Shown piece after piece: positions 1,482-20,000 of a stretch of DNA of 20,000 nt. The notes beneath the pieces were generated by a model. The model had not been told where the DNA came from and did no database searches. It was given only the letters and a program-made list of their open reading frames with translations. The translations under genes and the position numbers were made by a program. The DNA is from Psammoneis japonica (Eukaryota): positions 118,919-138,918 of the forward strand of contig QPGO01000201.1 of the NCBI GenBank assembly GCA_008632985.1. Reading direction: 5' to 3'. Every line of letters begins with the position of its first letter. Position 1 is the stretch's first letter.

Positions 1482-2144
1482 CGATATTCTGTGTCCGACA
1501 ATAACTACTGTCTATTCCGCGAAATCATGGCTGAAGGAATGCCAATTCTTGGCTCGAGAAACGTCGAGCATGTACTTTGTGGGAAAGATTGCGTACTTCT
1601 GCTGAATTTCCCAGCTGCAATGATCACCTTCCGTTGACTCGTATAGTTCAGTTGGTTATTCCTAAGCCCCGATGGTCTACTATTGGGAGGTGGATGTGAC
1701 TGAAAAGTGAATGCGGACAACAATTGAGAATTGAGAGACATGAAGAAGCTGCAGTGAGACCGTGGGAGGACCAAACGAAGTTGTCTGGTCACAGACAAGG
1801 CGAAGCACTCCACGCATGTTGCAAATCTTCATTGAGGCGGACCCAAAGAGGCGGTTCGTGGCCAGGAGCTCTAAACAGTGAAAGTGAGCGTCAATGTGTA
1901 TGTATATATTGAAGCCAGCTTTCCTTCATTTTTTGGACCTCGCTTATCATTATTTGTTGTTTTTATTACATGGTGGTCTGAATATTTGAACCCTTCCTCT
2001 CTAGAAGTAGACAATAGACGAATCTGTGACGTCGGGGGATAAAGAAAAGTTAGACCCTAGATGTACAGTAAGCGGCAGAGCACGCACTTTTCAACTACAA
2101 CTGTTGTATTGTTCGCATAAAGAAGAAGTATGCATCAGTCGAAA

Positions 2145-2951
2145 CTAGTACTGCCCGGTCGGTTTCCTCATGGCCAATCTTCTCAATTCATCCACGCTGG
2201 GTATATTTCCGTCATCATCGGTTAGTCTTCCCGTCTGACGATAATCCGTGACGGCAATACCCATTTCCGAAACAGCCAGCATGGCCCGGTCTCTATCTTG
2301 CCGCTCAATGGCTTTTCCAAAGACACCGCATTGTGTTTCATAAGCTTTGCAGTCGGCCATCATTTGCTTGGCGTACGAATTGCTCATGCCAAGGCCTTGT
2401 CCGTCCAAACTCGATACGTATAGTTTCATTGGCAAAATGGCATTGTCTGCCGTCTTGTAAAATTCCGATACCCCTTCCCAATTGCCATCGTCAATCATGG
2501 GTGGAACAACTGTGATGGTGTTGCTCACTTTTTGAATCCGAGGGAGATAACGCTTTTTGGCTGTGGGATAGTAATACGCTGTTGATTGATTGGAAAAAAG
2601 ATGGATACGGCATGAGTGACTCGAAACAAATCAAGACCTTTAGATTTTTTGAATGAGAAAAGAAATGGAAAACGTACATGCTCGCAGAGTCGGGTCGATT
2701 CCTTTATCTCCTTTTTGTCCCTTGGCAATCACAACGGTGGAGGACTGGTCCTTTTGTACAATTTTGTTGGGATCCGCACCAAATTCATCCAACAAACCCG
2801 CCTGTGCTGCACTCGGAGCCGCCGCAGTAGCTGCCGCAGCAGTCGCCACGGATTGAAGGAGGCTTCGTCGGTCCATGGAGCCTGGGACCAACGCCACAGA
2901 CGAGGCCACAAACATGGATGCCACAATCGTAGAAGTCAAAACAAGTTTCAT
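2145..2951 (-). CDS. Nucleus-encoded plastid thylakoid-lumen protein of unknown function (235 aa); exons complement(2678..2951) and complement(2145..2578)
   Basis: Signal peptide MKLVLTSTIVASMFVASSVA, then twin-Arg DRRSLL, an Ala-rich h-region and an AQA cleavage site (Tat lumen signal). A 99-nt GTACG...CAG intron (2579-2677) joins in frame: ...PTLRAS-YYYPTAKKRYLPRIQKV... Confidence 0.75.
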
Positions 2952-3295
2952 GGCTTTGCGCTCTTCTTCTTTTAAGTTGAAATGGAGATGAACAAAAGGA
3001 TTTGTGACATCCAATGCTCGCAGATGTTCTGTCGACAACGCACCACGTCGATTGCATTGGCCGCTTGCGTTTTCTTCTGCTGTTATTGTTTTGTGAGAAA
3101 GGTGAGGGGTGACGTGGCTCCATCCGACCGCGCGAGATCGCGCATGCCACAGACGACGGCTCTGAATGGAGGAGTGGATGCATGGACAGACCGTGTTGGA
3201 GGGAGTTTCTGAATTTTCGAAAATTGTTCGGAAGCCACCAGCCACTCAACATGACGTTGAAGGCTCACAAATAATATAATGGCTGACATGGATAC

Positions 3296-3526
3296 AGTCA
3301 CGACTCAACGTCATTCTGGTCGCATCTCACGACTGCAACCCAGACTCAGATTTTCTCTTCGAAACAATTGGCTCATCACAAAATCGATTCAAACAGAAGC
3401 AACGACATTCGTCATAATTTCTAGACAACGACTTTCAACAAGCGTCTGTTTACCTCTGTCGCTGTTCACATTGCTGCCAACCTCCGAGGTCTTGCCCATC
3501 CCACTCAGCTGCAGGGCTGCATCTCG
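3296..3526 (+). repeat. 5' LTR
   Basis: Direct repeat of 10293-10523 at offset 6997. By-eye alignment gives 11 mismatches, all transitions, and no indels. Confidence 0.93.
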
Positions 3527-3528
3527 AC

Positions 3529-3542
3529 TGGTTGCAGAGCCC
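3529..3542 (+). promoter_or_regulatory. Primer-binding site, resembling the complement of the initiator tRNA-Met 3' end
   Basis: TGGTTGCAGAGCCC lies 2 nt after the LTR. It has one mismatch to the iMet-type PBS TGGTAGCAGAG. Confidence 0.7.
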
Positions 3543-3691
3543 AATTTGTGCGTTGACGAGAGCTCCTGACCGAGTCATCGTCACGGACGCTTTCGGTTTT
3601 TGATTTTGAAGCAAACCCGGGAAATAGCTGAGTCTCTCTCGCTTCTCTCGTCTTCACTCTAACAAGAACCTCCCATGCTGCACTCTCTGTC

Positions 3692-6187
3692 ATGGCTGCC
3701 ATCGATCCAGATGTTCTGGCGAAGGCGTTTGCCGATGCAATGGCCGCCAACGCCGCGGCGACCGCTCCTCCGGCTCCAACCAAGCCGTTACGTGGTGGAA
3801 TTCACCCAACCCACGGGGTTTACATTGGTGGTTCCAAACTCAACAACAACTGCGAACAATCCAATGATAGAACCTGCCGGCTCGCCTCTCAGCGCCGTCA
3901 TCCCAAGGCTCTCGACTCGATAGAACGATCTCTCCGCGATCAACAAGCTTCCGCAATGACTTCCAAGTTCAACGGTCGACTTGAGATTTCAGATGGTCCC
4001 ATCAACGAGCTTGACAAGGACCATTTCGTCAAGACTGTTCGAGATCTGGTGGAAGCCCACGGTCAGCAGACGTTCTGCCATGTCAAGGACAGCGACGACA
4101 AGGTTCAATGTGTCTTCGACCATCTTCACGAGTTTACTGTGACCGATCTCGTGAACGAGTGCACGGTTGGGAAAGCAGCTGCCGATGATGCCAAGTACGA
4201 CGAGATCAAGCTCGACGACATCGGGCTCTCTCAACTTCTCGTTCACTCAAGAATCACCAATGCCTTTCGCGAGAAAATCGAGACCAAGTTCAACCATCTT
4301 TCGGACTGCCAAGACTGCCCTGGATCTGTTCCATTCATGATGGCTCTCGATGCTTGCAATGCTGGTGCTCTGACGGATGTTGAGACGGCTGAGAAGCAGC
4401 TAGAAGACCTCAGTTTGGTTGACTGTCCCAGCGAGGATTGCACGGACTTTGCTGCCGAAGCTCTTCGCATCGTGAAAATCATGCAGACCGACTGCGCGCT
4501 TCCGGCGAACACAAGCTCCAAGCTGCTCCACAAGATCTCCTCTGCGTCCTCTGAGTGCTTCAATCGCCGAGTCTACAACAAGCTCAACGACGTCAAGGCC
4601 ATGGAACGCAAGCACCGCCTCAAGAATCCTGCTGACATCGTGTCCGACAGCGATCACAGAACGCTCGGACCGGTCGGCATCATTGCGTGGATTCAAGAGC
4701 AACACAACGAACTCGTGAAGGACAGGGAATGGCCTGCATTGGCAGCCAAGCTACCCGAGAGTAATCTTTCGACTACGGATGACCCTGTGAAGACGAAGCA
4801 CTGTCATGGTTGCGGTCTCGAGGGGCACACCAAGAAGACGTGTCCGAAGTGCAACGCCAAACCGCCGCGCGACGATCCTCCTCCCAATCCGCCGCCTGCA
4901 GACGACCCTTCCAGGAAGAAGAGGCGACCCATCGCTGCCTGGCGCACTAAATTTGACGGAGAAACGAAGAAGGATAAGAATGGCAAGGAATGGAAGTGGT
5001 GTGCCACGTGCAAGGCGAAGGGTGCCGACAAACCTGGAATCTGCCAGAAGCACTCTACCGCGGAACATGCCGACGACCGCAGGCAACCTCCCAAGGAGAC
5101 CCCAGCAGGGAATTTGTCTTCCGTTGCTGATCCGGACAGTGGCGTGCCCATGGGTCCGCCCGCTCAGACTACCAAGGAACCAGAGGGAGACGAATCCGAC
5201 CCCAACGAGTTGGTTTTCACGGGAATGTGGTGCGCGGCTACGGATCCCGTTGCCGACCCGGATTTCTGTTCCGCCCCTGTCACTGCTGCAATTATTGTCA
5301 CTCCGGCTTCCGAGAGGGAGAGCGACACAGTCGTTAGCACTGAGGTGGTTTGCATCGAAACGAGCCCACCTGTGCTCACCTCAGTCGTGGATCCAGTCGT
5401 GTCTCCCATCGTGGTTGAGACTGTCACTCCCGAAGACGCCGATGACTTCTGCGAATGCTCCGACGCTTTCTCTACCTTTGAAAACGAACCACCGGCTATT
5501 GAGTTGTTTCCGGCCTCGAAGCTGTGCTCTGTCGAGCATCCGGATGAGTTCTTTGACGCTCCCGCACATTTGACGGATGTGCTGTCAGACGACACCAAGT
5601 TAGATCTCATCCTTGAACACGACGTACACTTTGAAGACGCATGCTACGACTTGCCTCCGTGTGTTACGTATCGTGGCTTCGATTTCTACGATCCAGAGGT
5701 CCTGGATGCGGATGATTGTCACGAGGACGTCGAAGACGAGCCCACTTCGCGTCGCTCACTCTTGGGTCGAGTCAAGCCATTCATACTCTGGCTCGCCGCC
5801 ATGTTTTGGGAAACGGCACTGCATCTTTGCTTTGCTCCGATCCCATGTATCCCTCGAGCTCTACGCCGCCAGCGCAAACTCCCAACTTTGCACGGGTTTC
5901 CAGCCTCCTGGATGGTCCTGTCCGTTGCAGTGATGGCATGGTCAGCAGTTTACGCCGGTCAACAGCCCGAGTGTCCATTCTCGAACGTGCCAAGTCGTTT
6001 TTCGACCGCCAGCTCTCAAGTCTACCACATTGTGGAAGAGCTAGATGACCGGATAGTGTCAGATACGGGGTCACTGTTCGAATGTCACAGGATCAAAGGC
6101 ACGCAAGTGCTCACCGAGTTTGTCGCGCGCCATCCGTCACACGCACTGAGCACTCGTCTCAAGGCCTGCTGGGAGAGCCAGAAGTAG
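3692..6187 (+). pseudogene. gag: Retrotransposon Gag with zinc knuckles plus a long acidic/hydrophobic linker
   Basis: CX2CX4HX4C knuckle CHGCGLEGHTKKTC (4802-4843) and a second WKWCxxC...H....H motif. It is the first long ORF after the PBS and is strikingly Cys/His-rich and Tyr-poor. Confidence 0.8.
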
Positions 6188-7476
6188 CTGAACGGTCTGA
6201 TGCGATAGACGAATCAGCCTTCTTTGACACCCATGAGGAACTGGAACCTCTCGACGACCAGAAGCATTTCTTTGACGCTCTTGAGGACTTCAGCCCGGAT
6301 TTCTTCCGGTTTGACGAGCTCTGTCTGCCGCATCACATCGTGGACACTGCCCATTTTCAAGATCCTGTGGAACTGTTGGAGGAAGCAAGTGTTAGACCAG
6401 TCGTCTATGACACCTCCACCATCCAACTGCTCACCGGACAATCACAAGCCGACCTCCTTGCATCCGATCCGCAGGCACTCATCGGTCTGTCGGACGAGGC
6501 TCTCACGGTCGTCATGGACACTGGTGCCACGTTAGCCATCACCCCCGATGAAGATGATTTTACGGGGCCTGTGACTGTTCCCAAGAAACCCTTGCAGATC
6601 AATGGGATTGCCAACGGTCTTGCCATCCAGGGTGCCGGTCCGGTTGCGTGGGTGTTCACAACGCCGAGTGGGGCTGCCATCCAACTGAACACCATGGCAT
6701 GCTACGTCCCTGGAGCCCGTCAGCGCCTGCCATCGCCTCAACGCCTCTTCAACGAAGAGAAGGGGGTACGTGGGAAGTGTGAGGGCGATGAAACCACTTT
6801 CCGTTTACAAATTGACGGGATGGGCAAGTTGGTCGTGCCATGTCATCCATCAAGCCACTCACCCATTGCGTCGATGACCAAGGGCGCATCTGCCGCTCCT
6901 CAAGTGAACCTTCAGATCCTTATCGAGGAGAATCAAAACCTCACGGCAGGCCAAAAGCTTCTTCTCGAAATGCACGCCCGTTTTGGCCATTTGAACTTTG
7001 GTCGCGTCCAAGCACTTCTCCGCGCAGTTCCGTTCCTTTCGAACCGTTTCAAGTCCGCAGCGAAGTGTGACCACCCAAGATGCGAGGCATGCGAACATGC
7101 TAAAGGTCACAGACGCTCTCTTGGATCTACTCACAAGTCGACAGTCCCTGAACGCGACGGGGCCCTTCGAGCTGACCATCTTCGACCGGGTCAGGCTGTC
7201 AGCGTTGATCATTTTGAGTCGCGCCTTTTAGGCCGCACCTTCGACTCTTGTGGCAAAGCCACGTCCAAGCAATTCAAGGGCGGTTGTGTCTTTGTCGACC
7301 ACGCCTCTGGCTATGTCCAGGTCGAGCACCAACTGGGTTTCTCCGCTGTTGAGACGATGCGCGCGAAGCAAGCGTTTGAGAAACATGCTTTGGACCACGG
7401 GGTCATCGTCCAAGAATTTCTTACCGACAGTGGCGCTTTCAAGGCCAACGCTTTTGCACAACATGCGAGAACATGA
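6082..7476 (+). pseudogene. pol: Pol part 1: aspartic protease, integrase zinc finger and start of the integrase core
   Basis: Protease VVMDTGATLAIT; HHCC finger HARFGH...CEAC; core VSVDHF, FVDHASG and LTDSGAF. Frame changes near 7460-7476. Confidence 0.88.
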
Positions 7477-9780
7477 ACAACGTCTCCGTTTTTGTGGAAC
7501 CAACGCCCATCATCAGAACGGCGTCGCAGAGCAGGGCATCCGCGGCATCTCCAACATGGCGAGAGCGATGTTGCTTCATGCATCAATCCACTGGAAGGGG
7601 GGAATTGACAGCTCCCTGTGGCCCATGGCAGTTTCTTGTGCCACGCACATCTACAATGTCACCCCAAATTCCAAAGGACATTGCCCAGCGGACATTTTCA
7701 CCGGTTCGACAGTGCCAAGACATCGGTTGCGCGACATTCACACATGGGGATGTCCAGCGCACGCACTTGACCCGACCCTCGCTTCCGGGAAGAAGCTCCC
7801 GCGTTGGGAGCCTCGCACTCGTCGCGCTTTGTTCGTGGGACTCAGTGCCATCCATTCCAGTGAGGTTCCTTTGGTCCTCAATCTTCAAACTGGAAGTGTC
7901 GCACCTCAGTGTCATGTGGTCTTTGACGATCTCTTCACTGCCGCACCATCAATCGAGAGGGAGACGGATCCACCTGATCACTGGGAACACTTGTGCCTCA
8001 ACCAATCGACATGCATCCCTCTGGAGAAGGATCAGGCAGTTCATTTACACGATGAGTGGCTTGCCCCTCCAGAGCGTCAACGTAAAGAACGAGAACTAGC
8101 CAGAGCAACACGCATTCGCGGGCATTTTGAGCCTGCTCCATCGATTGCTGTGCCGGATTCACCCACTTCTCGCGACGACGTCACCGATCGAGTCGCACCT
8201 GCGACTCAGCAGCCAACGCCACCAGTCCCACCTGCGACTCAAACTCCTGCAGACTCTACGGACTCTACGCCAATTCAGCCACCTGAACCTCAAGACAGCA
8301 ACGGACTTCCGCCACCCGAAGCGCCGACGGAACCAACAGCTCCTCCCCCAGTCGAGACACCTCCCATGACGAATCCAGAGGGAGCACCAGGGCTGCGACG
8401 GTCTTCACGGTCAACCAAGGGACAGTTCAACTCCACCAAGTTTGTAGATGAGGTCTGCTTCAGCTCCGTCGAGGAAATGCCGCTGCCGATCGGACACGAG
8501 GCTCAACTGGCGTATCTGGCGACTCTCGAGACGGATTTGGACAGTGGCGCCATCAATGTCGGCGATCCACGAGCCTGCGCAGCTAGTGAGAAAACCAAGG
8601 ACCCTGACATGCCTTCATTGCACAATGCTCTGAAAGGTCCGGACGCCGACGAATGGATTGAGGCGATGAAAATTGAAGTCAACGCACTCACACATCGTCG
8701 AGCCTGGAAAGCAGTCGAGCGTCAGCCGCGTGTGAATGTACTTCCAGGCACATGGGCACTAAAGCTCAAGAGACTCCCAGATGGAACCCCTCTCAAGCAC
8801 AAGGCCCGATGCTGCGTCCGCGGTGATTTGCAGAAAGAAGGAGTCGACTGCTTCGAAACCCATGCGCCGGTTGTGCAATGGTCCAGCACCCGACTCATGC
8901 TCACTGCGGCATTAAAGGAGGGATGGACTGCACGACAGGTGGACTGCACCACAGCCTTTTGCCAAGCTGACATCGCCGAGGAAGTTCACACAACACCGCC
9001 GAAGGGATTTGCGCCAAGGTCGGGACTCAATGTGGTTCTCAAACTTTTGAAAGGACTACACGGCCTAAAACAGTCTCCCAAGGGCTTCTACGAGAAGTCA
9101 CGAGCTGGTTTAACCGAGCGCGGATGGGTGCCTTCAGCCACAGATCCCTGTTTGTATTTCAAAGAGGGCATGATGTGTGTGGTGCACGTCGACGACACCG
9201 TTTTTGCTGGAGCTTCAGCTGAAGCTCTAGAAGCCGAAATTCGCAAGTTAGGAGTCTCCGACGACGAACATCGCCACGCATTTGAACTTAGAGACGAAGG
9301 AGAAGTCGGCAACTTTCTCGGTGTCAAGATCGAAAAGCTCTCCGAGGGTCGATTTCTACTCACTCAACCCGGTCTAATTGACAAGGTCCTGCACACCGCA
9401 CAGATGCAGGATTGCAATGGAGCATCTGCTCCAGCTCTACCTGCGGCTGTTGGTGCCGACACGGACGGCCTGCCTTTTGATGAACCCTGCGATTGTCGCT
9501 CAGTTGTTGGAATGTTGATGCACTTGGCAGCGAACAGCCGGCCAGACATTGCACATGCCACACATCAAGTGGCTCGATTCTCGTTTGCACCCCGAGCGTC
9601 CCACGCTGCTGCAGTGAAGCGGATGCTCCGATGCCTCAAAGCAACTGCTGCTGAAGGTCTCATTCTCAAGCCTGCGCAAGATCATCGAGTTGATTGTTGC
9701 GTCGATTCTGACTTCGCGGGGTTGTTTGGTGTGGAAGATGGTCAAGACCCAGTTTCTGTCAAGTCCAGGACTGGATCCTG
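7460..9780 (+). pseudogene. pol: Pol part 2: integrase C-terminal core and reverse transcriptase
   Basis: AHHQNGVAE (catalytic E), WGCP, PQxHVVFDD; RT motifs KAR.CVRGD.Q, QVD...AF, LHGLKQSP, DPCL, HVDD (for YVDD, 9185-9196) and SRPDIA; start of RNase H DSDFAG. Confidence 0.9.
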
Positions 9781-10271
9781 TCTGCTGCGCCGGCTGCCCG
9801 CTTGTCTGGGTGTCCAAGCTGCAGACTCTTGCAGCATTGTCGACTGTGGAAGCGGAATGTGTCGCACTTTCTCAAGCCATGCGCGATCTCATCCCCATTC
9901 GTGAAGTTCTCAAGGAGCTCAACCACCACGCACTCGGAAAGTCTGACCGCCAAAACCCTATCACGACTCACTCCAAGGCTTTTGAGCTCGCAACCCAAGG
10001 CACCGATGACTCGCCTGTAGAGCAGAATGTCCTGCCTGCGTCCGTTGTGTACGAAGATAACTCCGCGTGCCTCAAGTTCGCATGCATGCCCAAGTTGTCT
10101 CCGCGAACCAAACACATCGGTATCCCGCACCACTGGTTTAGGACTAAAGTCGAACAATTGGAGATCGACATCCAACCTGTCAGCACTCTAGAGCAACTGG
10201 CCGATCAGTTCACGAAGGGACTGCGGACCGATGCGTTCCGTGCGGCTAGAAAGGCTCTCATGGGCTGGTGA
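9770..10271 (+). pseudogene. pol: Pol part 3: copia-type RNase H
   Basis: GCPLVWVSKLQT, LSTVEAE, VYEDNSAC, RTKHI, QLADQFTKGL, ending ...LMGW-stop. Confidence 0.9.
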
Positions 10272-10283
10272 GCTCTCTCGGTT

Positions 10284-10292
10284 GAGAGGGAG
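10284..10292 (+). promoter_or_regulatory. Polypurine tract (plus-strand primer)
   Basis: GAGAGGGAG immediately before the 3' LTR. Confidence 0.85.
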
Positions 10293-10523
10293 AGTCACGA
10301 CTCAACGTCATTCTGGTCGCATCTCACGACTGCAACCCAGACTCAGATTTTCTCTTCGAAACAATTAGCTCATCACAAAATCGATTCAAACAGAAGCAAC
10401 GACATTCGTCACAATTTCTAGACAACGACTTTCAACAAGCGTCTGTTTGCCTCTGTCGCTGTTCACATTGCTGCCAACCTCCGAGGTCTCATCCATCCTG
10501 CTCAGCTGTGGGACTGCATCTCG
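10293..10523 (+). repeat. 3' LTR
   Basis: Direct repeat of 3296-3526. Homology ends after ...GCATCTCG. Confidence 0.93.
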
Positions 10524-11153
10524 TCCAATGCGAAGCTCGCCTTGGCGGCAGAAAAGGTGGCGGTCGGGTTGGGAGCACAAACCAAGTGCATCAATCTTGG
10601 ATCTCACGAGCTGCCCCTCTACAATCAAGATGACGAGGCGGACAAGGGGATGCCATCCAACGCTGTGAAACTCAAGGAGGAGTTGTCATCAGCAGATGGA
10701 TGGATCATTGCTGGTCCCGAGCACAACGGATCCATTGTGCCCCTTGTTGTCAACGCATTTACGTGGTGCAGCCGTGGCGACCCAGAAGGATCGCCCATGT
10801 GCGCCACATTTCATGGAAAGTCTGCAACAGTTCTCAGTGCGTCTCCTGGCGCCATGGGAGGCATGAGGTCGTTGAATCCTCATCGTCAGTTGTTGCAAAA
10901 CTTGGGAGTGAACGTGTTGCCCGCATCGGTTGCTGCAGGAGGCGCCTTCAATGCCTTTGATGACACTGGAGCCTTGACGGATTCACGGCACAAATCCATG
11001 CTTGAGGCCGCAGTCAGTGATCTTTGTTGCCAAACGAGAGACAAAGCGAACCGCGAAGCAACGTGTGATTTAATCCGTGCCAGCACGGTGGGAGAGTGCG
11101 GAAATGTCGACGTGGCTCAACAGTGGTTTTTGCCAATGCAAGCATCACAGTAG
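10524..11153 (+). pseudogene. NADPH-dependent FMN reductase (flavodoxin-like, ChrR/SsuE family), 5'-truncated by the LTR and hypermutated
   Basis: SNAKLA, LPLYNQD, ADGWIIAGPEHNGS (family P-E-Y-N), and SASPGAMGGMRS. The N-terminal GSxR phosphate-binding loop and a start ATG are missing at the LTR junction. Confidence 0.85.
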
Positions 11154-11229
11154 ATTCAATGTTGAATCATCATCCTGCCGATGGACGGGTTCACACACAA
11201 CTGCATTTTCGACGCAACGAAGAGCACCA

Positions 11230-11249
11230 CTCTCTCTCTCTCTCTCTCT
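11230..11249 (+). repeat. (CT)10 microsatellite
   Basis: Direct reading. Confidence 0.9.
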
Positions 11250-11802
11250 GTCAAGCGTGTTTGATCTCTCGAATTTTTCGGCTCTTACCCACCAATGAGG
11301 AGGGGGAAACGCGTCTCGCACAAGCAACATTGTGATCCCAGGAAGAAAGCTGAGAGTCACAGCTGCTGTCAGGGTCTCTGGAACTTCGATGAGTTGGATC
11401 CGCGACAACTGCCGCAACAGAGGAACACCGGCAAGAGAGTGGAAAATCTGTCTGTGTGCACAATTTCCATCCGAGGCAATTGCGACTAATTTTTTTGAAA
11501 TTTCAACACAATGTCAATGAATGCATGTCTGCAACAATGCGTCATCGGCGGTGACGACAGAAGCTCGAGCGATGTGCGTGCGATGTTGTGATGACGATCC
11601 TCATTCCTCATCATGGCACTGTTTGTGTCGGCGTGCCACGCAATGCAAACAACCCACGCCACAACCATCAACAGACATTGCCATGCGGGATCACACCCTG
11701 GCATGTGTCCTTCAGCCTGAAGCCTTCAGTGCGTTGCCGACGCCGACTGCCCATTGATTTGCCCACTCTTGGGCGTTCGTTGGGGGCTCTCTGACAGATG
11801 CA

Positions 11803-14038
11803 ATGGTGATGATTGCGCGGCTGATGGTTGTCGCCTTTGTTTGCGTTAAAGCAATTCTTGGCTCCAAATGCAGCGGTTGCGAAGATCGTCAGGCATGAAA
11901 CGCATTCTCTGCTTTGGAAGAAGTTGCGGTGCAAGGGCGTTTCGCAATGCATGAGTTCTTTTTTTGTCACGCAAGTGAAGATCACTGCAAGGGTTCGTCC
12001 ACTTTCCAATTTCGCACATGCCTCACATTCTCCACCTCTCCCGCTTCCAACACAGCAAAGGCATTGCTCCAAGAACTGTCGACAACTTGGACACGGCAAG
12101 AAGAAGGGTGTTAAAAAAGGAAAGTTTACGAATGTAGCGAGGAAACGAGGGAAAAGGAGTGAAACGCCATCCGCAGCCCCCTCGAGTTCTCCAAGCGGCA
12201 AGCCATCCCAAGAACCGTCCAGTGTGCCATCCAGGTCACCCAGTTCTGCTCCAAGTGGTGCTCCCAGCATTTCTCCAAGTAAGAGCCCGTCGGCAGCACC
12301 CTCTAGCATGCCCAGTGAATCGCCTTCCGAATCGCCTTCCGAATCGCCAAGCGCCACACCGAGTGATTCTCCGAGTGAAACCCCGTCAGACATTCCTTCA
12401 AACATGCCAAGCGCATCGCCGTCCCAAAAACCAAGCAATGCCCCGAGTGGCGCTCCCAGCAGCGCTCCAAGCGACGCCCCGTCGGATGCACCTTCGAAAA
12501 TACCGAGTAGATCGCCAAGCTGTGCGCCGAGTAGAACTCCAAGTGAAACTCCGTCGGATGCACCTTCAAACATGCCGAGCAAATCGCCGTCCCAAACACC
12601 AAGCAATGCGCCAAGTAGTGTGCCAAGTAAACGCCCAAGTGAAACACCATCGGAATTTCCTTCAGGCATGCCGAGCACATCGCCGTCCCAAAAACCAAGC
12701 ATTCTCCCAAGCAGTGCTCCCAGTGGCGCTCCAAGTGAAACCCCGTCGAACGTGCCTTCAAACATTCCGAGTGCGTCACCGTCCCAAATGCCAAGTGATG
12801 CCCCAAGCAGTGCTCCCAGTGAGTTTCCGAGTGAAAATCCATTGGAGTTACCTTCCAGCGTGCCGAGTAGATTGCCAAGCTCTGTTCCCAGCACTGCTCC
12901 AAGTGGAACCCCATCGGATGCACATGCCATCAAAACAAGTTCATCGCCGTCCGAAACACCAAACAGCTCCCCAACGCCGCCTTCTTCACCGGCAGGTCCC
13001 ACAGTTCCTTCGACTCCACCATCAGATGCTCCTTCATCAGGCCCGGTGGCTGGCCCAACACCTCCTCCATCGAGTTCGCCATCCGGTGCACCATCATCAG
13101 GCCCGGTGGCTGGCCCCACACCCCCTCCAACAGCGACACCATCGGATGCTCCTTCATCAGGCCCGGTGGCTGGCCCAACACCTCCTCCATCGAGTTCGCC
13201 ATCCAGTGCACCATCATCAGGCCCGGTGGCTGGCCCGACATCCCCTCCAACAGCGACACCATCGGATGCTCCTTCATCAGGCCCGGTGGCTGGCCCCACA
13301 CCTCCTCCATCGAGTTCGCCATCCGGTGCACCATCATCAGGCCCGGTGGCTAGTCCCACACCCCCTCCAACAGCGACACCATCGGATGCTCCTTCATCAG
13401 GCCCGGTGGCTGGCCCCACACCTCCTCCATCGAGTTCGCCATCCGGTGCACCATCATCAGGCCCGGTGGCTAGTCCCACACCCCCTCCAACAGCGACACC
13501 ATCGGATGCTCCTTCATCAGGCCCGGTGGCTGGCCCAACACCTCCTCCATCGAGTTCGCCATCCAGTGCACCATCATCAGGCCCGGTGGCTAGTCCCACA
13601 CCCCCTCCCACAGCGACACCATCGGATGCGCCTTCATCAGGCCCGGTGGCTGGCCCCACACCTCCTCCATCGAGTTCACCATCTGGTGCACCATCATCAG
13701 GCCCGGTGGCTAGTCCCACAGCGACACCATCGGACACCCCTTCATCAGGCCCGGTGGCTGGCCCCACACCTCCTCCATCGAGTTCGCCATCCGGTGCACC
13801 ATCATCAGGCCCGGTGGCTGGCCCCACACCTCCTCCATCGACTTCACCATCCTCTGGTCCAACAGAGCCATCAACAGCACCTGACAGTGTTCCGTCAACA
13901 TCTCCACCCGGCTCTCCGTCCTCGGGTCCTGCAGCTCCGTCAATGGGCCCCGCAGCACCGACGTTTCCAACAGTCTCGGGTCCGACAGCTCCGTCAGCAC
14001 CCGCACCCCCACCGACTCAAATCTTCCGTAGAAAGTGA
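11803..14038 (+). CDS. Secreted Pro/Ser/Thr-rich mucin/extensin-like protein with RXL site and Lys-rich patch; 5' exon uncertain and possibly pseudogenised
   Basis: Continuous frame 12056-14038: RQL-GHGKKKGVKKGK, then PSxxPS repeats and 40-aa repeats. A signal-peptide-like MVMIARLMVVAFVCVKAILG starts at 11803, with a putative intron 11971-12055 and an in-frame TGA at 11896. Confidence 0.65.
12160..12920 (+). repeat. Degenerate 12-nt (PSxx) coding repeat with four higher-order PSETPS...SPSQ blocks
   Basis: Translation shows PSETPSDIPSNMPSASPSQ, PSETPSDAPSNMPSKSPSQ, PSETPSEFPSGMPSTSPSQ and PSETPSNVPSNIPSASPSQ. Confidence 0.85.
13021..13840 (+). repeat. Near-perfect coding tandem array, 120-nt unit built of two related 60-nt halves (~7 units)
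   Basis: CATCAGGCCCGGTGGCT recurs every 60 nt. Units start at 13021, 13141, 13261, 13381, 13501 and 13621, with one 12-nt deletion near 13720. Confidence 0.95.
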
Positions 14039-14186
14039 TTGTGAAGCCCGTGTGCGTTGTATCTTGAACGACACTGCGCACTTCAGCAATTCAGCGTCTT
14101 TGCAATACCTAAATCTTCCGTAGGTGAGGCTGCGTGCGTTGTACCTTAGACGGTACTGCGCACTTAAACAATTCATCGTCTTTGCA
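14019..14186 (+). repeat. Degenerate direct repeat (14019-14104 and 14111-14186) overlapping the stop codon and 3' UTR
   Basis: Both copies read AAATCTTCCGTAG...GTGCGTTGTA...ACTGCGCACTT...CAATTCA.CGTCTTTGCA. Confidence 0.8.
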
Positions 14187-14286: not shown

Positions 14287-15363
14287 TTATTTCTTCGTAG
14301 GAGGTGTGTATTCCCTCTCAGGGTTCTCTCTTTCAGTTCAGGGTCAAGCTTCCAGGCGTTGCTCTCAACACCGTTCATATTGTATACAAAGTGCTCCATT
14401 CTACGAAATGCGCCTGTTTGATCAAGACGTCATTGCACGCCCCGCTGACAATGCAATAGTTCCCATCGTAGGGTGCCTTGTGGTGCAATGCATGAGGTTT
14501 CCGTCCAATTATAACGCCCGCGTCTTGAAGCCAATTTACCCATTGCGGCACCTCACTCTTGTCATGTGCGACCACTTGTGAAATNTCCTGAGAAAGAATT
14601 TCCAGAGAGCAAAACACGGCCAAGAAGAAAGTAACTGTTGGTCCGCTAAGAAAAGAAATGAGAGCCATTGTGGGTACGCCGAAGGGGACGCACAGTTTGT
14701 ACACGTTATTGCAAAACTCGCGTTCTGTAATTGTCCATGGAGCCGAGTGATGACCTTGAAATGCAGCAATGATATTTCCCATGATTGGAGTACGGCCATT
14801 GCCGTAGTTGTCGACCGACCAATGCAACACACCCGAGCCAAAATCTGCAAGCAACCAACTTGATACGGCAAGCGCTAATGCCTGAGTGCTTGTCGTTGCC
14901 AGGTCGCCACCATTGCTTGAGTACAATTCCTGCAATGCAGCTGCAGCTATGGCCCCGTTTCCCAAGAATGTTCCAAGCACCATGGCAACTTGATAAGGTT
15001 GTGTCTCCAGCGTGTCTCCCTCGACGACAACTGAAGCTACCTTTCCCTTTGGCCGTTCGATACCAGATCCCTCTAATCCAAAAACGAATCCATCGTCAAG
15101 ATACGTTTTCGATTGTGTCTCGGGAACTGATACATCTTGTTCTGACATGACGCTTACAGCATTCAGTGATGTAGAGGACTGGGAGTTTAGAGCCTTCGCG
15201 TTGCTATTCAATCTTGGCTCGTTGGCATTCATTGAAAGGCGACTCTTGCTTGTGATTCGCTTCGATGATGAAAAGCTGACTCGTCGTTGTGTGGAAGCTG
15301 TAAACTTTCGACATTACATGAAAGCAACAGCAATACGGAGCAAGCGAGAGAAGGAATCTTCAT
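14287..15363 (-). CDS. FAD4: Plastid fatty-acid desaturase 4-like (delta3-trans; TMEM189/Kua domain); several apparent 1-nt assembly frameshifts
   Basis: ADFGSGVLHWSVDNYG, FQGHH, FHKWSH, HALHHKAPYDGNYCIVSG. Signal peptide MKIPSLACSVLLLLSCNVES is followed after a shift by FTASTQRRVSF, a transit peptide. The C-terminus FRRMEHFVYNMNGVESNAWKLD is in a shifted frame. Confidence 0.85.
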
Positions 15364-17965: not shown

Positions 17966-20000
17966 ATGATACGCCAAGGATGCAGACTGTCGACGAGAGC
18001 TATCGGTAGCGGGAAATGGACAGTTGGACCGTCATGTTGTTTGAGCCTTCAAAAATCAGAGACATGGCTACAACAACAAGAACGTAGGTGCTGTGCGATA
18101 TTCCCGTCAAGAAAATCACCTGCCACAAGGCTGTTTCAACGTAATTCAGTTGCACCAAGAGGAGGTCTTTTCTCAATTGATGGGTTACACAAGCCATCCG
18201 ACTTTGTGGCTCTGGCAACAGATGCTAAATCGGTATGTGACGGGCTGCGTTCCTCCTTGACGAGTTTGGAGGCCATTACGTCTAAAGAACACGCGTCTGA
18301 AACTTTAAAGAGACTGGACAATGTCAGCAAGACTGTATGCAATGTCATTGATGCGGCCGAATTATGTCGATCCGTCCATTCTTCTGTAGCATGGCGGGAA
18401 GCGTCGTCCAAGGCTTTTGCAATCATGAGTGATTACATTGCATTGTTAAACTCCGACACACATTTGTACCGTGCGTTATCCATGGTTACAAATTCGGATT
18501 ACTTTCCCCAGTTATCTCAAGAAGAGCAACGATTTGCAATTCTACTAAAGGCGGAATTTGAACGTGATGGAATACACTTGCCGGATGAAGAACGAAACAA
18601 AGTACGAACATTGCAAAACCATGTAACTCAATTGGAAACGCTCTTTACCGACAACATTACGCATTCAAGAAAATACTTTGATGTGGACGCTGCATGGGTT
18701 GAAGAAATTATACCGCGGCACATTTTGGAAGCGCACGTTCCACAATCAAACAAGGANNNNNNNNNNNNNNNNNNNNNNNNNNNNNNNNNNNNNNNNNNNN
18801 NNNNNNNNNNNNNNNNNNNNNNNNNNNNNNNNNNNNNNNNNNNNNNNNNNNNNNNNNNNNNNNNNNNNNNNNNNNNNNNNNNNNNNNNNNNNNNNNNNNN
18901 NNNNNNNNNNNNNNNNNNNNNNNNNNNNNNNNNNNNNNNNNNNNNNNNNNNNNNNNNNNNNNNNNNNNNNNNNNNNNNNNNNNNNNNNNNNNNNNNNNNN
19001 NNNNNNNNNNNNNNNNNNNNNNNNNNNNNNNNNNNNNNNNNNNNNNNNNNNNNNNNNNNNNNNNNNNNNNNNNNNNNNNNNNNNNNNNNNNNNNNNNNNN
19101 NNNNNNNNNNNNNNNNNNNNNNNNNNNNNNNNNNNNNNNNNNNNNNNNNNNNNNNNNNNNNNNNNNNNNNNNNNNNNNNNNNNNNNNNNNNNNNNNNNNN
19201 NNNNNNNNNNNNNNNNNNNNNNNNNTTGTTTGGAATATCAATGAAAGATAGTATGGACGATGAGGAGAAAATGGGATGTCGGAGATGATGGCAGTCATCT
19301 TGGTGTAAGGTTCGCAAGTTTGTCTTTCATGACGAGAACCGTCGACCGTTGGGTACAATGTATTTGGATCTTCACCCACGAGAAGGCAAGTACGGGCACG
19401 CAGCACACTTTACTGTTCGATGTGGCTGCGTTATTGGAGGAGGACCGAGTGAGCGACGCGGAGATGAGGAGTACCAGCTACCTATTGTTGCTCTTGTATG
19501 CAACATGTCGTCTCTCATCAAGCTCAATTCTAAGTCATTCTGAGGTCGAAAACTGTTCCATGAGTTTGGCCATGCATTACATTCCCTGCTGTCACGGACA
19601 ACCTTCCAGCACCTATCTGGCATCGTGGTGCCATGGACTTTGTCGAAACGCCATCGCACCTGTTCGAACAATACGCATGGGACCCAACGTTTCTCAAGGT
19701 TTTTGCAAGACACCATCACAGTGGTGAGCCAATACCGGACGACTTGATACACAAATTGGTTCAATCTAGGAACGAGTTTCGTTCCATTGATATACAAAAT
19801 CAAATTATTGTATGCACTTTTCGACAGACCATATTTGGAATACCGGACCTTCCAGCCAAGTACTACGCAAGTTCTTTGCAAAGTATCACAAGATCTTTGG
19901 TGTCCCATACGCGGAAGGCACTCACTGGCATTCACGCTTTGGGCATTTGGTCACGTATGGTGCTGGACTTATGGATATCTCTATGCTCAGGTGTTTGCAG
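17966..20000 (+). CDS. MIPEP: Mitochondrial intermediate peptidase (M3A metallopeptidase, MIP/Oct1); gapped, frameshifted in assembly, continues beyond window
   Basis: Arg/Ser-rich presequence MIRQGCRLSTRA; LDNVSKTVCNVIDAAE; EFERDGIHL; GTMYLDLHPREGKYGHAAHFTVRCG; zinc motif HEFGH (19559-19573); DFVETPSHLFE; HSRFGHLVTYGAG. Confidence 0.92.
18757..19225. other. Assembly gap (N run)
   Basis: Direct reading. Confidence 1.

Follow-up and report, generated by a model that had tools for sequence, protein, structure and literature searches.

The locus

We analysed a 20,000-nt stretch of the Psammoneis japonica genome (contig QPGO01000201.1, positions 118,919 to 138,918; hereafter the window), in which a Copia-type long terminal repeat (LTR) retrotransposon is followed directly by the remnant of a gene for an FMN reductase. 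The element, the remnant and the non-coding spacer behind it are strongly depleted of TA dinucleotides. A first-pass annotation had read the segment as hypermutation spreading out of a transposon into a host gene. The features at the centre of the analysis are as follows.

3296–3526, plus strand: 5' LTR of the Copia-type element, a 231-nt direct repeat 95% identical to 10293–10523
3527–10292, plus strand: interior of the Copia element, a dead, hypermutated copy
10293–10523, plus strand: 3' LTR, 231 nt; 11 sites differ from the 5' LTR, all of them transitions
10524–11117, plus strand: FMN reductase (PF03358) remnant, 5'-truncated at the LTR, hypermutated, at single-copy depth
11118–11126, plus strand: CAA CAG TGG where the homologues stop, each codon one transition from TAA or TAG (or TGA)
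11151–11153, plus strand: present stop codon TAG, 11 codons past the usual end of the family

The interior of the element matches Pfam PF13976 and PF07727, with a gag-pre-integrase domain and, at about 8702–9439, RVT_2, and a sequence resembling a primer-binding site (PBS; TGG...) begins at about 3529, just 3' of the 5' LTR. There are at least three shifts of the coding frame. At 6179/6180 other copies of the element have one additional base, at 7460 two and at 9776–9780 one; these are the positions at which the frame of the window copy changes, so that this copy has three frameshifting deletions besides its point mutations. In the reverse transcriptase (RT), HVDD replaces YVDD at 9185. The functionally critical PBS region (3529–3545) reads ..TGCAGA.. 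in the window and ..TGTGGA.. or ..TGTAGA.. in other copies, an alternation between TA, CA and TG.

The FMN reductase reading frame, open from 10443, gives a Pfam FMN_red (PF03358) match of 84.4 bits against a cut-off of 24 (E = 8e-24), with residues 27–168 aligned to profile positions 14–150 of 152. A database search returned 87 FMN_red homologues at E ≤ 1e-5, the best of them 64% identical; those that are named come from the diatom Cylindrotheca closterium and from MMETSP transcriptomes. From about residue 31 to its end, the remnant is 54–65% identical to about 30 diatom-type homologues. The alignment used below comprises 30 of the 87 (P0002–P0034 minus P0021, P0025 and P0027, which had lower query coverage).

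When eight homologues were compared with the whole window by tblastn, homology spanned 10521–11123 only, beginning in the last bases of the LTR (10521–10524), and their first 20–55 residues, including the SGSxRxGS loop, were found nowhere in the window. The LTR boundary is thus the exact point at which the gene is cut on its 5' side, and the FMN_red frame opens without an in-frame ATG. Compared with the PF03358 family, the remnant lacks the N-terminal FMN-phosphate loop, the start codon and the original stop. The first-pass assignment of the segment to FMN reductase stands; the gene it had taken to be a host gene is not intact, since the 5' ~30 residues are absent. It is a dead remnant rather than a working host gene.

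Loss of TA steps in the element, the remnant and the spacer

Expected TA counts were calculated from base composition; we report observed/expected ratios (o/e) and Poisson probabilities relative to the window background. The region 10501–11160 contains exactly four TA (at 10620, 10760, 11071 and 11151), the number given in the first-pass annotation, against 34.7 expected. By region:

Unaffected parts of the window: TA 347 observed, 588 expected, o/e 0.59; CA+TG o/e 1.19–1.35 by part
2601–3295, left flank: TA 13 observed, 44.8 expected, o/e 0.29; CA+TG 1.29; P = 0.003
3296–10523, element: TA 88 observed, 369 expected, o/e 0.24; CA+TG 1.25; P = 1.3e-23
10524–11153, FMN_red remnant: TA 4 observed, 32.8 expected, o/e 0.12; CA+TG 1.53; P = 2.8e-5
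11154–11950, spacer: TA 3 observed, 47.2 expected, o/e 0.06; CA+TG 1.52; P = 3e-9

No stretch of the window is more depleted of TA than the non-coding spacer. Among 10,000 mononucleotide shuffles of 10524–11153 the minimum was 16 TA, and the lowest o/e among 63 background windows of 630 nt was 0.40. Of five host open reading frames (ORFs) tested in the window, four have TA o/e of 0.39–0.56; the fifth, an exon in the left flank, has 0.32. The depletion is specific to TA: CG and AT steps are normal within the block, and AA and TT are likewise undepleted. Deamination of 5-methylcytosine at CpG is ruled out by the normal CpG content (o/e 0.82–0.98 inside the block, 0.82–1.08 outside).

TA steps surviving in 3296–12300 are enriched for a 5' C or a 3' G (35% versus 18% in the rest of the window) and poor in a 5' A or a 3' T (11% versus 29%), so that CTA and TAG are up and ATA and TAT down (chi-square P = 4e-9). 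This gives a hint, and only a hint, that ATA/TAT is the preferred target, though base composition differs between the compared sets.

Direction of change in the FMN reductase remnant

The family alignment allowed the changes in the remnant to be polarized. All the motifs singled out in the first-pass annotation lie in the frame open from 10443: PEHN (CCC GAG CAC AAC, 10716–10727) in place of the family motif PEYN, GSHEL, PMCAT, GECG and TKCIN. The Cys of TKCIN cannot be polarized, as it falls in a column that is variably hydrophobic among the homologues. Five columns carry Tyr in 93–100% of the 30 homologues; Y94, Y120 and Y219 are invariant (30/30) and Y55 is present in 27 of 29. The window has His55, His94, Cys120 and Cys219, retaining Tyr only at position 60, whose codon contains one of the four surviving TA. 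Besides the Tyr of PEYN, three further invariant or near-invariant (≥93%) Tyr have therefore been lost, the four changes being Y>H twice and Y>C twice. Intact homologues carry neither the His and Cys residues nor the C-terminal extension, so that this refutation foreseen in the first-pass annotation fails.

At 11 conserved columns the window carries a residue absent from all 30 homologues. In seven of these a single transition brings back the consensus (T30A, Y55H, S91G, Y94H, Y120C, V165A and Y219C), and every one of the seven reversions restores a TA, within the codon or across a codon boundary. All seven changes are A>G or T>C, about evenly divided between the two. The other four (T99V, L102V, F195C and H214S) do not revert in this way; five homologues have Tyr at the F195C column. 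Over the aligned region the window contains 1 Tyr, 5 His and 7 Cys, as against 4–10 Tyr and 1–4 Cys in the 30 homologues.

The same pattern is found inside the element. Of 12 columns in the RT/RNase H region where Tyr is conserved, the window fills 5 with His, 6 with Cys, 1 with Ser and none with Tyr, and none of 120 homologues comes close. Conserved Tyr have become His or Cys in 11 of 12 columns in RT/RNase H and 4 of 5 in FMN_red, so that the mutational load inside the element equals that outside it.

Two metagenome scans were made. With the RT region of the window, 52 pattern matches were obtained and none was confirmed, the patterns having included the mutated residues. With the FMN_red alignment, 80 loci were kept (34–46% identical); many are GC-rich, and they are unsuitable as a TA baseline.

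The lost stop codon

At 11106–11126 the frame reads GTC GAC GTG GCT CAA CAG TGG. The tail after the VDVA column is 0–4 residues long in 29 of the 30 homologues and 8 in the remaining one; in the window it is 11. This fits the conversion of an original TAA or TAG to a sense codon, as far as the family alignment can tell, and agrees with the first-pass reading of CAA CAG TGG as a former stop. A process that removes TA destroys TAA and TAG stops and is unable to make new ones, so the openness of a frame is no proof of anything at this locus.

Divergence of the two LTRs after integration

Nine of the 11 differences between the LTRs fall within six TA-derived dinucleotides. Three of these steps have TA in one LTR and CA or TG in the other, and three have CA in one and TG in the other; the simplest account of the latter is that one ancestral TA was struck independently in each LTR. 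A single TA is common to both LTRs, and about 75% of TA sites were lost per LTR after integration, an estimate that allows for unseen hits in the same direction and comes from small numbers. With only two other differences in 231 nt, the rate at TA sites would be two orders of magnitude above background, as these very small numbers suggest. The LTRs were identical at integration and have since diverged at TA, so mutation struck the integrated DNA.

A second haplotype and the depth of the flank

One public sequencing run (X1), kept as contigs, contains 72% of sampled words of 10524–12300, and its contigs were aligned on 2000–12300. Summed contig depth, which is not copy number, is 57 over the left flank, 3173–7175 over the element interior and 46–65 over 10600–12300. 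The element family is highly repeated; the FMN_red remnant and the spacer are not. The first-pass annotation had allowed that the FMN_red segment might itself be a multicopy repeat captured by the element. We rejected this possibility, as the summed depth of the flank equals that of the unique left flank. Other copies of the element in the X1 contigs differ from the window copy mainly by transitions (430 places, versus 72 with transversions).

X1 is identical to the window over 2000–3209 except at 2109. Over 10862–12300 there are 30 listed differing sites, 28 of them transitions and 26 at TA-derived steps. At 16 sites X1 has TA where the window has CA (9) or TG (7), ten further sites make up five steps at which one haplotype has CA and the other TG, and four are other changes (10983, 11439, 11515 and 12109). 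At 10936 X1 has GTA, encoding the Val found in 20 of the 30 homologues, where the window has GCA. Haplotype differences (window CA, X1 TA) extend the affected zone to at least 12097. No clear strand bias or strand-coordinated runs were found (9 versus 7 in the spacer, 5 His versus 6 Cys in the RT region); the 16 spacer and FMN_red sites form 7 runs, with about 9 expected.

TA counts in the two haplotypes, with those for X1 in sub-stretches of 11260–12300 tallied from the listed differing sites, are:

10862–11219: window 2, X1 3, expected 21
11260–12300: window 7, X1 22, expected 60.5
11260–11700: window 2, X1 15, expected 27
11701–12300: window 5, X1 7, expected 33
about 11319–11625: haplotype-specific mutated patch in the window, with 13 more TA in X1 over 11260–11700

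X1 is close to the background TA ratio in 11260–11700, and both haplotypes are depleted in 10862–11219 and 11701–12300. Because the surplus of TA in X1 lies mostly in 11260–11700, the window haplotype bears an extra mutated patch of about 300–400 nt. This suggests bursts covering a few hundred bases; gene conversion in X1 could look alike. No RNA run is listed as containing this stretch.

Flanks of the block

The surroundings of the affected block contain the following features.

2601–3295: left flank, weakly TA-poor, containing exon 1 and the upstream region of a neighbouring minus-strand gene
2951 down to about 2670, minus strand: exon 1 of that gene, encoding an RR-type signal or transit peptide
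11951–14038, plus strand: Pro/Ser-rich tandem-repeat ORF, co-oriented with the element, TA-poor to a sharp edge at 14029
14375–15232: neighbouring lipid desaturase gene with diatom relatives

Exon 1 (2670–2951, minus strand) appears intact and lies ~345 nt from the 5' LTR; it gives a weak PsaN-like Pfam match that is below threshold (E = 0.0099). No target-site duplication was found: the 5 nt outside the two LTRs mismatch under any plausible choice of LTR end. Together with a left flank that belongs to a different gene on the other strand, this means that the present arrangement is not a simple insertion. To judge from these junctions, the original left side has probably been lost, or exchanged by recombination between copies of the element. 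All named relatives of the FMN_red remnant and of the lipid desaturase gene are diatoms (57–70% identity).

On the right, TA density returns to normal abruptly at 14029, within 10 nt of the stop of the Pro/Ser-rich repeat ORF. Three or four overlapping ORFs of 420–736 amino acids occupy 11668–14123 in different frames on both strands, among them the Pro/Ser-rich repeat (plus strand) and a Gly/Leu-rich repeat (minus strand). As TAA and TAG are nearly absent at 11.7–14.1 kb, the open frames there are no evidence of genes; the long overlapping ORFs on both strands exist because these stops have been erased. Repeat units at 13017–13616, considered as an internal clock, have variable columns of mixed type and are uninformative. 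Just outside the right edge of the TA-poor block is a 60-nt direct repeat (14045–14104 and 14127–14186, 82% identical) with one TA in the inner copy and four in the outer; the copies differ at 11 sites, of which only 2 show TA/CA/TG alternation.

Single N at 14585 and 17130 and a gap of 469 N at 18757–19225 mark the assembly as a scaffolded draft. No Rfam family reached its gathering score anywhere in the window.

Mutation of chromosomal DNA in place

The FMN_red changes lie outside the LTR, the LTRs have diverged from one another at TA, and X1 and the window alternate between TA, CA and TG at the same steps. Mutation therefore occurred in place, in chromosomal DNA outside the reverse-transcribed unit, after integration, and differs between haplotypes. 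The proposal in the first-pass annotation that the mutator is regional and not tied to reverse transcription is upheld by these three observations.

We consider it likely that a TpA-specific mutation process acted on chromosomal DNA over the element and over the single-copy DNA downstream. TA would be changed to TG or CA, i.e. A>G on one strand or the other, and the block worked over would comprise one dead copy of a high-copy Copia family and the downstream single-copy DNA. The 3' LTR abuts codon ~31 of the FMN reductase gene, the 5' part of the gene is gone, and the flanks mismatch if taken as a single insertion site. In the 3' two-thirds that are left, roughly four in five Tyr codons then became His or Cys codons and the stop disappeared; the spacer behind was stripped of nearly all of its TA. 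The enzyme would most plausibly be an adenine deaminase working on DNA; a tRNA-type deaminase such as ADAT2/TadA, which deaminates A after U33, would fit the TpA preference.

How such a block would be singled out is less certain. A silencing mark spreading from the repeat may have defined it, a suggestion we make tentatively. It seems to us unlikely that the mark was set by transcription reading through from the 3' LTR in the direction of the next terminator, near 14.04 kb. That the effect spread from the element at all, by heterochromatin or otherwise, is something we infer.

Several observations weigh against this interpretation. Depletion of the left flank is weak (0.29), and of its 13 TA, 4 survive within 25 nt of the 5' LTR, a poor fit to symmetric spreading. 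In the window haplotype there is no decay with distance, the flank being as depleted as the element or more over 1.4 kb, so that "leakage" understates the effect. Beyond about 12300, low TA may reflect the composition of the Pro/Ser-rich repeat alone. At non-coding sites where one haplotype has TA, it is the window that is mutated in 15 of 15 cases and X1 in none; this one-sidedness, despite five doubly mutated steps, is not what independent mutation at equal rates would give and points to patchy bursts or gene conversion. X1 is moreover a single sample, possibly a strain rather than the other allele and possibly the source sample of the window itself, and its contigs do not reveal whether its haplotype bears the element at this site. 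The asymmetry between left and right could possibly reflect a secondary left junction, a boundary at the promoter of the neighbouring gene, or a direction that follows read-through transcription from the 3' LTR.

Alternative explanations

The block may have been marked independently of the element, for instance as an older silenced island, with the element landing in it or being rearranged beside it. The missing target-site duplication and the absent 5' part of FMN_red would suit junctions made by rearrangement or by recombination between copies, and a flank as depleted as the element or more, without a gradient, is what such an island would show. Repetition is also not required for hypermutation of this type, as the hypermutated region of a nucleocytoplasmic large DNA virus (NCLDV) in Bigelowiella natans is single-copy (Mettrop et al., 2026; bioRxiv 10.64898/2026.01.13.699255). 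At the centre of the depleted block, however, sits a member of a family whose summed depth is about 100-fold. Tyr loss is similar inside and outside the element and matches the post-insertion loss estimated from the LTRs, which suggests the same period of exposure, and the homologues of FMN_red are ordinary diatom genes, not foreign DNA. We regard independent marking as improbable.

Ordinary decay of a pseudogene, combined with general avoidance of TA in the genome or gene family, could draw on the under-representation of TA throughout the window (background o/e 0.59) and on some high-GC bacterial homologues with TA o/e of 0.1–0.3 (30 of the 80 metagenome loci were examined). Yet the lowest of the 63 background windows is at 0.40 and the host ORFs are at 0.32–0.56, and the most depleted stretch is the non-coding spacer. 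Neutral change would not be confined to transitions at TA, nor would it hit four of five invariant Tyr, and it would not give CA against TG at the same step between haplotypes or between LTRs. This makes decay a very improbable account.

Just as improbable is ADAR-like A-to-I editing of element transcripts, among them read-through RNA carrying the flank, with the edits made permanent through reverse transcription (3' transduction) or RNA-templated repair. A 5' U is preferred by ADAR, and it is downstream of the 3' LTR, in sense orientation, that the flank is strongly affected. In the discussion section of the B. natans preprint, A>G change with a 5' U preference is likewise said to resemble ADAR (bioRxiv 10.64898/2026.01.13.699255). 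Against this, the FMN_red remnant lies outside the LTRs at single-copy depth, the LTRs have diverged mutually at TA, and there are differences in place in the second haplotype. ADAR hyper-editing is much less strictly confined to TpA, and ADARs are known from metazoans only.

A sequencing or assembly artefact, such as systematic miscalls at modified bases, is the least credible explanation: only one public run, possibly from the source sample, has the stretch, and nothing positive speaks for it otherwise, whereas independently assembled contigs match the window over 10600–11219 bar two listed sites yet differ further on, and the changes are codon-coherent (Tyr to His or Cys) and lie at different sites in the two LTRs.

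Comparison with known systems

Full-text literature searches turned up no report of a TpA-only signature in diatoms and a single matching report, from B. natans; PMC9258296 proved on checking to be unrelated to the signature. In mutation-accumulation lines of B. natans, two integrated viral regions (NCLDV and virophage) are reported to mutate about 1000-fold faster than the remainder of the genome, with 230 of 231 mutations A>G or T>C, on TpA according to the authors; the hypermutation occurs in some lines only, and coding sequences poor in TpA show an excess of reverse-transcriptase and DDE domains (Mettrop et al., 2026; bioRxiv 10.64898/2026.01.13.699255). An ADAT2-like DNA adenine deaminase is proposed there, as a prediction only (bioRxiv 10.64898/2026.01.13.699255).

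The likeness to our locus is close. In both, change is almost wholly A>G or T>C and strikes TpA, which becomes TpG or CpA, the affected DNA is a regional block of kilobase size, and TpA loss is coupled to CpA+TpG gain; bursts are seen in some lines there and as a haplotype-specific patch here. Relative to the cut-offs used for B. natans, 0.43 for TpA depletion and 1.52 for CpA+TpG enrichment (bioRxiv 10.64898/2026.01.13.699255), the FMN_red remnant (0.12, 1.53) and the spacer (0.06, 1.52) qualify on both counts, and the whole element lies well below the first (0.24) but reaches only 1.25 for CA+TG. The changes here are transitions in 11/11 (LTR), 28/30 (haplotype) and 7/7 (FMN_red) cases, and they lie on TpA in 9/11, 26/30 and 7/7.

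The two cases also differ. B. natans belongs to the Rhizaria; this locus, with its diatom relatives, belongs to the Stramenopiles. The targets in B. natans are integrated viruses, in contrast to a high-copy LTR retrotransposon and adjacent single-copy host DNA here. The depletion of the NCLDV region is given in the preprint as 0.45; here it is far deeper (0.06–0.24). The Results and Discussion of the preprint describe no identifiable host gene destroyed beside the target, such as the FMN_red remnant found here.

The closest functional analogue is repeat-induced point mutation (RIP) of ascomycete fungi, which ruins repeats by dinucleotide-specific transitions at the DNA level, can leak into neighbouring single-copy genes and leaves a diagnostic skew. 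Its direction is the opposite: RIP converts CpA to TpA (C>T), whereas here TpA is destroyed (A:T>G:C) and GC rises. The RIP signature of C>T at CpA with an excess of TpA is accordingly absent, TA being lost and CA+TG gained. The flank here is hit as hard as the repeat, and there is no evidence at this locus of a tie to meiosis or to repeat pairing.

With ADAR and APOBEC3 the locus shares clustered, deaminase-type transitions on selfish elements. Those enzymes act on RNA or cDNA intermediates, within the retrotranscribed unit, whereas the changes here lie outside the LTR and postdate integration; the G>A and C>T changes that APOBEC gives are not seen. Editing of retro-intermediates is ruled out by changes at least 1.6 kb beyond the 3' LTR in single-copy DNA, by the divergence of the LTRs and by polymorphism in place.

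Significance

This locus extends TpA-restricted hypermutation, described a single time, in 2026, to another lineage and another kind of target. It carries its own internal controls (two LTRs that were once identical, two haplotypes, and a protein family with invariant Tyr), which together fix the polarity and the timing of the changes without experiment.

It is conceivable, and we put it forward with some reserve, that a genome-defence mutator exists in diatoms as the mirror image of RIP, in which TpA-restricted DNA adenine deamination is recruited to retrotransposons, removes almost every TA together with Tyr codons and TAA/TAG stops, acts in bursts a few hundred bases long that still distinguish haplotypes, and spills over kilobases of unique DNA alongside. 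Because the signature is identical in a chlorarachniophyte, such a system could be an old one across the Stramenopiles, Alveolata and Rhizaria (SAR). If so, it would be a source of GC-rich, stop-poor and ORF-rich islands in algal genomes, and host genes would be killed or reshaped by it.

Were the process general, it would constitute a RIP-like defence outside fungi with the opposite chemical direction, and the price that host genes pay for nearby insertions would be measurable. Annotation would be burdened with long spurious ORFs in every frame as TAA and TAG vanish, as seen here at 11.7–14.1 kb. An enzyme that deaminates adenine in eukaryotic DNA would, moreover, become addressable in a group with genetic tools.

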